Below, piece by piece: positions 13,338 to 13,960 of a stretch of DNA of 64,000 nucleotides; positions within the stretch are counted from its first letter, which is position 1, and every line of letters begins with the position of its first letter. The stretch is from Escherichia coli. Lineage in GTDB: Bacteria; Pseudomonadota; Gammaproteobacteria; Enterobacterales; Enterobacteriaceae. A program made the position numbers and the translations under genes. The stretch is taken from the NCBI RefSeq assembly GCF_965641715.1, contig NZ_OZ282453.1, one strand, 5' to 3'. Under the pieces are notes generated by a model that saw only the letters and a list, made by a program, of their open reading frames with translations, did no database searches and was not told the DNA's origin.

Positions 13338-13960
13338 CGAACTCCTCGCGCTTTATTATTGTAAAAGCACAACACCTTTTATACTCATATTAATTAACGA
13401 AACACTGAAACAACTTGATTTATTCTTCGCTCAAATTCACTTGTTCAAAAAGATTATATTTTATACCCACAACTGTAGCATAAATAATATTATCAAAAGT
13501 CAAAGCTGGGACTATCAAATTTCGCTCATTTTCAAAAATACAACGTAATTTTGGCAATCATCTTAATAGCAGGATCTCTTATCGCATGTGAAAAATTTGT
13601 AATGATTAGACAATAACCGCGTTCATTTATCACGCGTTATAAATGTGAAACTGGCTTCTTGCAGATGCTCTTAACCTCTACAGGAGGATTTATACCACCA
13701 TTTCAGAACTATCATATTTACCTTAAATGATCATTTCAGCCATATAACACGCTCAACCTCACAAATGGTTTACACTGTCTATTGTTTGGGTAATTTAAGT
13801 AAGTCAGCTACGAGCAACCTTGAGTGGGTAGCCAGCAATGGACTCAAACCCAATCAGGTGTTCAGATTGTTTCAGAATTGTATTAAAAACAATGTATTAA
13901 ATAATCTGATAGCGTTTGGTCGTAGTGTGACGCAGACAGCAAGCTAATAAGGAAATGATT

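Follow-up and report, generated by a model that had tools for sequence, protein, structure and literature searches.

Within the 64-kb stretch of Escherichia coli DNA analysed here (contig NZ_OZ282453.1; hereafter the window), genes are arranged in the order ybjS, amiD, ybjQ (11001-11324, minus strand), a low-GC open reading frame (ORF; 11535-13337, minus strand), ybjP (13961-14476, plus strand) and artPIQM. The low-GC ORF is carried by an AT-rich islet of 2559 bp. A gap of 623 bp (i.e. 13338-13960; 656 bp if counted from an ATG at 13304) separates the divergent starts of the islet ORF and ybjP, and both the coordinates and the layout given by a first-pass annotation, which had described ~620 bp of non-coding AT-rich DNA between these genes, were correct. 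The features of the locus are as follows, with transcription start sites (TSSs) transferred from strain EDL933.

11325-11398, minus strand: retained ybjQ-proximal part of the ancestral spacer, from alignment with K-12, B2 strains, Escherichia sp., C. koseri and Salmonella.
11370-11365, minus strand: -10 box GATAAT of the proximal ybjQ promoter, in ancestral DNA (11325-11398); TSS at 11358 (EDL933 TSS 1035442 in the published map).
11399-11534, minus strand: left non-coding end of the islet, with a near-consensus distal ybjQ promoter, TTGACA-16-TAAACT (11434-11407), and its TSS at 11402.
11535-13337, minus strand: islet gene, intact in the window, for a 600-aa orphan protein with a pentapeptide-repeat region at aa 367-469.
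13338-13620, minus strand: left half of the gap, a weakly constrained region upstream of the islet gene; 11 of 12 A/T tracts, a 9-bp indel polymorphism at 13449-13457 and no mapped TSS.
13489-13518, minus strand: best sigma-70-like site for the islet gene, a prediction only (TTGATA-18-GATAAT; predicted TSS ~13482), within a low-variability island at 13485-13544.
13621-13752, plus strand: conserved DNA upstream of the ybjP TSSs, presumed promoter and regulator-binding region; -10 TATAAC at 13743-13748.
13753-13960, plus strand: ybjP 5' leader; TSS at 13753, main TSSs at 13782/13784, -10 TACACT at 13771-13776, Shine-Dalgarno (SD) sequence AAGGAA at 13949-13954.
13765-13947, plus strand: 60-codon ORF, formerly annotated as a hypothetical protein; judged non-coding here.
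13862-13909, plus strand: imperfect inverted repeat or hairpin in the ybjP leader, with 11-bp and 5-bp stems; nearly invariant.
13899-13960, plus strand: sole segment of the gap with recognisable homology to the ancestral spacer; ~67% identity over the last 42 nt, ribosome-binding site (RBS) kept, ancestral -10 missing.
13961-14005, plus strand: codons 1-15 of ybjP (signal peptide MRYRSLSLLIP...), confined to the islet haplotype.

The GC content of the gap was 34.3% as compared to 50.3% for the window, which places it within the lowest 3% of all 623-bp segments of the window. In a 49-kb annotated neighbourhood of strain Sakai, the gap was the longest of ~40 intergenic gaps, with trxB-lrp second at 545 bp. 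The earlier description of the gap as long and AT-rich was, therefore, borne out. Its AT-richness did not exceed that of the rest of the islet, with GC contents of 32.3% for the ORF and 33.3% for the 2559-bp islet. No annotated feature was present in the gap among the RefSeq matches listed, and a scarcity of long ORFs is to be expected anyway for DNA of this composition. Only one other stretch of the window had a GC content of 38% or less (i.e. 50651-52074); it represents the N-terminal half of an 808-aa ORF with an EAL-type-like C-terminal half, which was read as yliE/pdeI-like, lies beside an ABC-transporter permease and looks ordinary.

The islet ORF starts with GTG at 13337, preceded by a strong SD sequence, GAGGAG (13347-13342), with a 4-nt spacer; an alternative start, the ATG at 13304, was chosen by PGAP in one strain. 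E. coli/Shigella accounted for the sole full-length cluster of the islet protein in a search of 1.84 billion representatives. Pentapeptide repeats were its only recognisable feature (Pfam E-value of 2e-8, under the gathering score). A scan of a genome collection produced a single match to the protein, with 98% amino acid identity over the full length, on a 2972-bp contig (JAIJJM010000403.1) of a metagenome-assembled genome labelled Collinsella sp.; the contig almost certainly comes from E. coli and was misbinned. The dN/dS values of the islet gene (0.08-0.25) indicated purifying selection, yet broken copies are frequent. A 7-bp tandem duplication truncates the gene at aa 413 in EDL933, and the same 413-aa split is present in Sakai. 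Other breakages were a frameshift (SCU-316), a deletion of ~0.67 kb (F1140), an IS1-mediated loss (CUWW06) and an IS2 insertion (MFDS1022581). Intact copies, including one identical to that of the window, are called pseudogenes with a 'missing C-terminus' by PGAP. Since one database name reads 'putative type III effector', the protein was compared with pentapeptide-repeat type III effectors of the PipB2/EspX type. The resemblance consists of the repeat stretch and of a low-GC, strain-variable gene in E. coli, including EHEC; similarity is, however, restricted to the repeat region and many carriers are of non-EHEC origin.

The whole islet was present in 1123 of 5426 complete E. coli genomes. 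The gap sequence itself was found at 1129 places in 1128 of these 5426 genomes, always as a single copy at the ybjQ-ybjP locus. Genomes without the islet have a short ybjQ-ybjP spacer of 125-127 bp instead, as observed for K-12 (125 bp), B2 strains, other Escherichia species, Citrobacter koseri and Salmonella. Alignments showed this short spacer to be highly conserved across genera, indicating that it is the ancestral state and that the islet is an insertion. Homology to the ancestral spacer extends on the left side of the islet to ~11398. On the right side, comparison with the K-12 intergenic sequence, the check proposed in the first-pass annotation, found resemblance in the last 42-60 bp before ybjP only. 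As judged from these alignments, the gap is islet DNA except for this final segment; far from being conserved backbone over its whole length, it is islet-borne.

Searches for a mobile origin of the gap found a single locus, no terminal repeats and no repeats or mobile-element ends that would mark an IS, MITE or REP remnant. A distant blastn search against E. coli genomes and plasmids likewise found a single copy and no similar sequence on true plasmids; three 'plasmid' matches were to records of very large size (0.73-4.9 Mb), which are probably pieces of chromosome deposited as plasmids. The islet is flanked by CTGATATGC (11374-11382) and CTGATAGCG (13906-13914), which are identical at 7 of 9 positions; each aligns to the one CTGATACGC that the ancestral spacer contains. 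This pair may be a decayed target duplication, a deletion microhomology or a chance match; as a claim for a 9-bp target duplication it was rejected, the match being too short and imperfect.

The haplotype boundary on the right side lies inside ybjP, as indicated by the islet-specific first 15 codons. Whilst ybjP begins with MRYSKL(T/S)(M/L)L... in all other Escherichia, Citrobacter and Salmonella, MRYRSLSLL is confined to the islet haplotype. The ybjP gene is highly polymorphic, with 68 differences from K-12 (~23%) in the first ~290 bp (13961-14240) and near zero thereafter. Islet-free B2 strains have the mature-YbjP allele of the window with other signal-peptide codons, and ybjP is thus a recombination mosaic.

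Transcription of the locus was examined with a published Cappable-seq map of EDL933 under eight conditions (Table S5 of PMC10469882), whose TSSs were transferred to the window by exact sequence match. Only three positions (13361, 13428 and 13830) distinguish the gap of EDL933 from that of the window, none of them within a promoter box, and the sequences from -45 to +10 are identical around each ybjP TSS. In the rows of this table for ybjP, TSS 1033012 (window 13784, plus strand) was reported for exponential growth in LB, M9 and salt and for stationary salt; TSS 1033014 (window 13782, plus strand) for stationary LB and acid; and TSS 1033043 (window 13753, plus strand) for exponential salt, stationary M9 and stationary salt. 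The corresponding ybjP leaders are 177, 179 and 208 nt in EDL933 as compared to 56 nt in MG1655 according to the same rows (PMC10469882), a difference of 121 nt for the main TSS. The suggestion that the gap shares the promoter region of ybjP was thereby confirmed; among the rows listed in the EDL933 map, transcription starts within the gap are on the ybjP side only. An antisense TSS inside ybjP (1032702, window 14094, minus strand) is reported for four conditions and points through the gap toward the islet gene; no other minus-strand start is mapped upstream of the islet gene among the rows listed.

Both -10 boxes, TATAAC for the TSS at 13753 and TACACT for those at 13782/13784, are at a suitable distance from their start sites. 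No good -35 was found for either promoter, and the plus strand of 13600-13960 scored 5.7 bits or less as a promoter, no better than shuffled DNA. As these scores are poor, support for the ybjP promoters comes from the mapped TSSs and not from sequence scores; scans with the sigma-70 consensus and position weight matrices did not rise above shuffled DNA and were not taken as stand-alone evidence. The abundance of YbjP in the O157 proteome indicates that the mapped promoters are productive.

The first-pass annotation had proposed that the original divergent promoters of ybjP and ybjQ were displaced by the insertion and are now held by the gap. In K-12, the ybjP TSS is 56 nt upstream of the ATG, implying a -10 box TATTAT directly after CTGATACGC. 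This position corresponds to the left junction of the islet, where the sequence is CATGTT, and the box is missing from the right end, which argues that the ancestral ybjP promoter was destroyed and not displaced into the gap. The ~67% identity to the ancestral spacer and the kept RBS in the last 42-60 bp before ybjP are what a displaced promoter would have going for it, but the ancestral -10 lies, in mutated form, at the opposite junction, no TSS at -56 appears among the EDL933 rows, and the ybjQ promoters (TSSs at 11358 and 11402) are outside the gap and 2 kb from it. Displacement is thus refuted by the alignment and the TSS map, and we regard it as barely credible. Replacement of the promoter describes the data instead: between strains, the upstream DNA is non-homologous, ybjP is orthologous and the TSS has changed (56-nt versus 177-208-nt leader).

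On the ybjQ side, the distal promoter matches the consensus at 10 of 12 positions and coincides with EDL933 TSS 1035398 (window 11402), which was seen in stationary-phase conditions in the rows of the map. The ybjQ leaders are given as 78 and 34 nt in EDL933 as compared to 76 nt in MG1655 in these rows (PMC10469882). As this promoter is located in the left end of the islet, both islet ends provide promoters to flanking core genes. No terminator was predicted between the islet ORF and ybjQ, making read-through possible.

Sequence conservation was analysed for 12 haplotypes from complete genomes or long assemblies and then for 60 sequences that included metagenome contigs. The gap splits near 13620-13630 into a variable left half (13338-13620) and a conserved right half (13621-13960), with 16.3% and 6.8% variable sites, respectively (Fisher test, P = 1.9e-4). 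Upstream of the ybjP TSSs (13621-13752), 4.5% of the sites varied within the major allele class, and both ybjP -10 boxes and the stretch from the RBS to the ATG were invariant in all 60 sequences. Distances were determined between the window and four major-class alleles (L004, L007, L008 and L009). Jukes-Cantor distances were 0.065-0.090 for the left half and 0.006-0.024 for the right half, and dS values were 0.08-0.17 for the islet ORF and 0.043-0.107 for ybjP; relative to local synonymous sites, the left half evolves at a rate between about one half and parity. In CUWW06, IS1 has replaced everything to the left of ~13627 whilst the right half and ybjP were kept. A rare second allele class of ~20 genomes was far more divergent, with a dS of 0.60 for the ORF and distances of 0.27 for the left half and 0.087 for the right half.

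Apart from the islet-free state, the islet thus occurs in two deep allele classes (~1105 versus ~20 genomes), separated by a dN/dS of 0.25 at this ORF dS (L015 and L018). Intermediates were few (4 records at 90-95% identity), and the depth of the split greatly exceeds the backbone divergence between these strains. A metagenome scan detected additional alleles and no third allele class.

The presence of the ybjP promoters in the right half led us to read 13621-13960 as being under purifying selection, and we infer that ybjP expression is most plausibly the reason for its conservation. Recombination history may be partly responsible for the low diversity of the right half, and in the extreme form of this explanation the right half would merely have a younger genealogy through recombination or hitch-hiking with ybjP, the gap being neutral islet DNA with chance start sites. 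Two observations are in keeping with such a genealogy: divergence shifts abruptly near 13630, and between the deep allele classes the right-half distance (0.087) is close to the dS of ybjP (0.107-0.146). Within the major class, however, the right half is 5-10-fold less diverged than both the synonymous sites of ybjP and the left half for the same pairs, and the -10 boxes and the RBS are invariant in 60 sequences. We consider a purely genealogical explanation improbable and retain purifying selection on the right half as the better account.

The gap was also searched for coding sequences. ORFs of the gap had no match in Pfam, NCBIfam, PHROGs or PADLOC. The only candidate of note was the 60-codon ORF, which earlier annotation carried as RS04965 and which RefSeq no longer includes. 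A small protein gene, perhaps an upstream ORF coupled to ybjP, would be consistent with this past annotation, with a 90-codon stop-free frame in AT-rich DNA that was kept in the 12 haplotypes first compared, with a shared TSS at 13753 and with a stop codon overlapping the ybjP RBS. Nevertheless, premature stops occur naturally in the ORF (K13* in six contigs, Q37* in one), and its variable sites are spread evenly over the three codon positions (10/9/10; chi-square, P = 0.97). Moreover, it has no SD sequence, the main ybjP TSS falls inside it, a homology search matched the same locus only, and it is missing from the novel-gene tables, i.e. the translated intergenic ORFs, of a Sakai RIBOseq study. 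No tested feature indicates coding sequence in the gap; the nonsense alleles count against the small peptide raised by the first-pass annotation, and a hidden protein gene is very unlikely.

A small unannotated RNA, raised in the same place, found no backing from an Rfam match, a terminator or an independent TSS: the Rfam scan of the gap (E-value of 1 or less) yielded nothing except a chance snoRNA match ending at the gap edge, and the terminator scan detected none. A weak Rfam CRISPR direct-repeat match outside the gap, in the ybjP-artP spacer (14506-14542, minus strand; E-value of 0.07, 25.9 bits versus a gathering score of 45), probably reflects a palindromic terminator or an element of the REP type. 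A further explanation is that the ybjP leader (13753-13960) acts as a cis-regulatory RNA, either a structured leader or an sRNA target, conferring a post-transcriptional control of ybjP specific to islet strains. Folding of the leader from the main TSS was better than that of shuffled sequences (z of -2.57; 2 of 200 shuffles as good), and the leader is, as described above, much longer than in K-12. The hairpin of 48 nt is also nearly invariant, with five variable sites, of which the three seen in the 5'-leader haplotype alignments lie in loops. In contrast, folding of both strands and both halves gave z values of -1.2, +0.5 and +1.6, leaving the longer transcript and the antisense strand without a signal, and the leader has no Rfam match. 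No covarying or compensatory pair was present in the 12 haplotypes, a comparison that consequently has no power either way; without such a pair, a structured leader is only a minor possibility and we think it unlikely. The gap is an ordinary two-part regulatory region of an accessory islet, hiding neither gene nor RNA.

The body of the islet appears to be silent. In the EDL933 map, no gene-associated, internal or antisense TSS was present for the islet ORF among the rows listed for the eight conditions, whilst rows for the neighbouring genes were present; RS04970 has no listed gene TSS, and this EDL933 copy of the islet gene is frameshifted. The best sigma-70-like site upstream of the islet gene scored 9.4 bits, not above shuffled controls (mean maximum of 9.6), and no EDL933 TSS is found at this site among the rows listed, so that it is apparently silent. 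H-NS is known for xenogeneic silencing of AT-rich acquired DNA (Navarre 2006; Lucchini 2006) and for suppression of intragenic starts (Singh 2014, PMC3923964), and H-NS-bound upstream regions evolve faster (Higashi 2016, PMC4720273). The islet resembles such DNA in a GC content of 33% over 2.56 kb, in an accessory distribution, in having no listed start in its body and in a fast-evolving upstream region. Absence of a listed TSS from 2.6 kb of 33% GC fits H-NS silencing as described in this literature, and the left half and islet body are, we infer, most likely silent through H-NS.

The islet departs from typical H-NS targets in other respects. The gap had no match within two mismatches to the high-affinity motif (TCGATAAATT-like; 1.7 expected), and its A-tracts showed no helical phasing, with AA/TT power at 10-11 bp within the range of shuffled sequences. 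The proposed prediction of promoters and curvature produced promoter-like sites that did not exceed shuffled controls, and the 'curved' DNA of the first-pass annotation did not materialise. The 200-340 bp on the ybjP side are active, with ybjP TSSs of the right half firing in exponential LB in the EDL933 map. The H-NS and Pch ChIP literature (SE11, SE15, K-12 and Sakai Pch/H-NS) contained nothing for this locus, and literature searches by locus tag (ECs0948-0950 and Z1095-1098) returned incidental mentions only.

Taken together, we consider it likely that the two-part gap came with the islet, that the ybjP promoter was replaced and that the left half lies upstream of a silent islet gene. The origin in the islet, the junctions, the pattern of conservation and the positions of the TSSs, as measured in EDL933 on identical sequence, are shown directly. 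An AT-rich accessory islet of 2.6 kb inserted into the ancestral 125-bp ybjQ-ybjP spacer, splitting and destroying the ancestral ybjP promoter. In islet strains, ybjP is transcribed from the two right-half promoters instead, TATAAC and TACACT, with a leader of 177-208 nt, and the right half would thereby have come under purifying selection. The left half would drift upstream of the pentapeptide-repeat gene, with the AT-rich islet body presumably silenced by H-NS.

Promoter regions of E. coli core genes have reportedly been found by Oren and colleagues (PNAS, 2014) to undergo horizontal replacement, termed 'horizontal regulatory transfer'. The locus described here is similar in that the DNA upstream of ybjP is non-homologous among strains and in that both the TSS and the length of the leader differ. 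It differs from that phenomenon because the promoter DNA of ybjP is the end of an inserted, gene-bearing islet and not a swapped spacer, and because the other end of the islet also gives ybjQ a promoter. The case is one of promoter replacement by an islet and not a new type of element.

A bolder proposal is that the islet ends have become indispensable promoter donors for ybjP and ybjQ, such that selection on core-gene expression keeps the islet or its remnants, with the leader hairpin adding a lineage-specific post-transcriptional control. We give this proposal a slim chance; if true, selection on core-gene expression, and not on the islet gene, would maintain the islet in a fifth of E. coli. 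Promoter replacement itself accounts for the presence of a conserved part within an otherwise decaying islet and provides a clean, datable example of an inserted AT-rich islet rewiring the promoters of its core-gene neighbours at either end. Acquired DNA drives ybjP in a fifth of the E. coli sequenced, which is relevant whenever K-12 regulatory knowledge (promoters of the RegulonDB type) is carried over to EHEC and other lineages.
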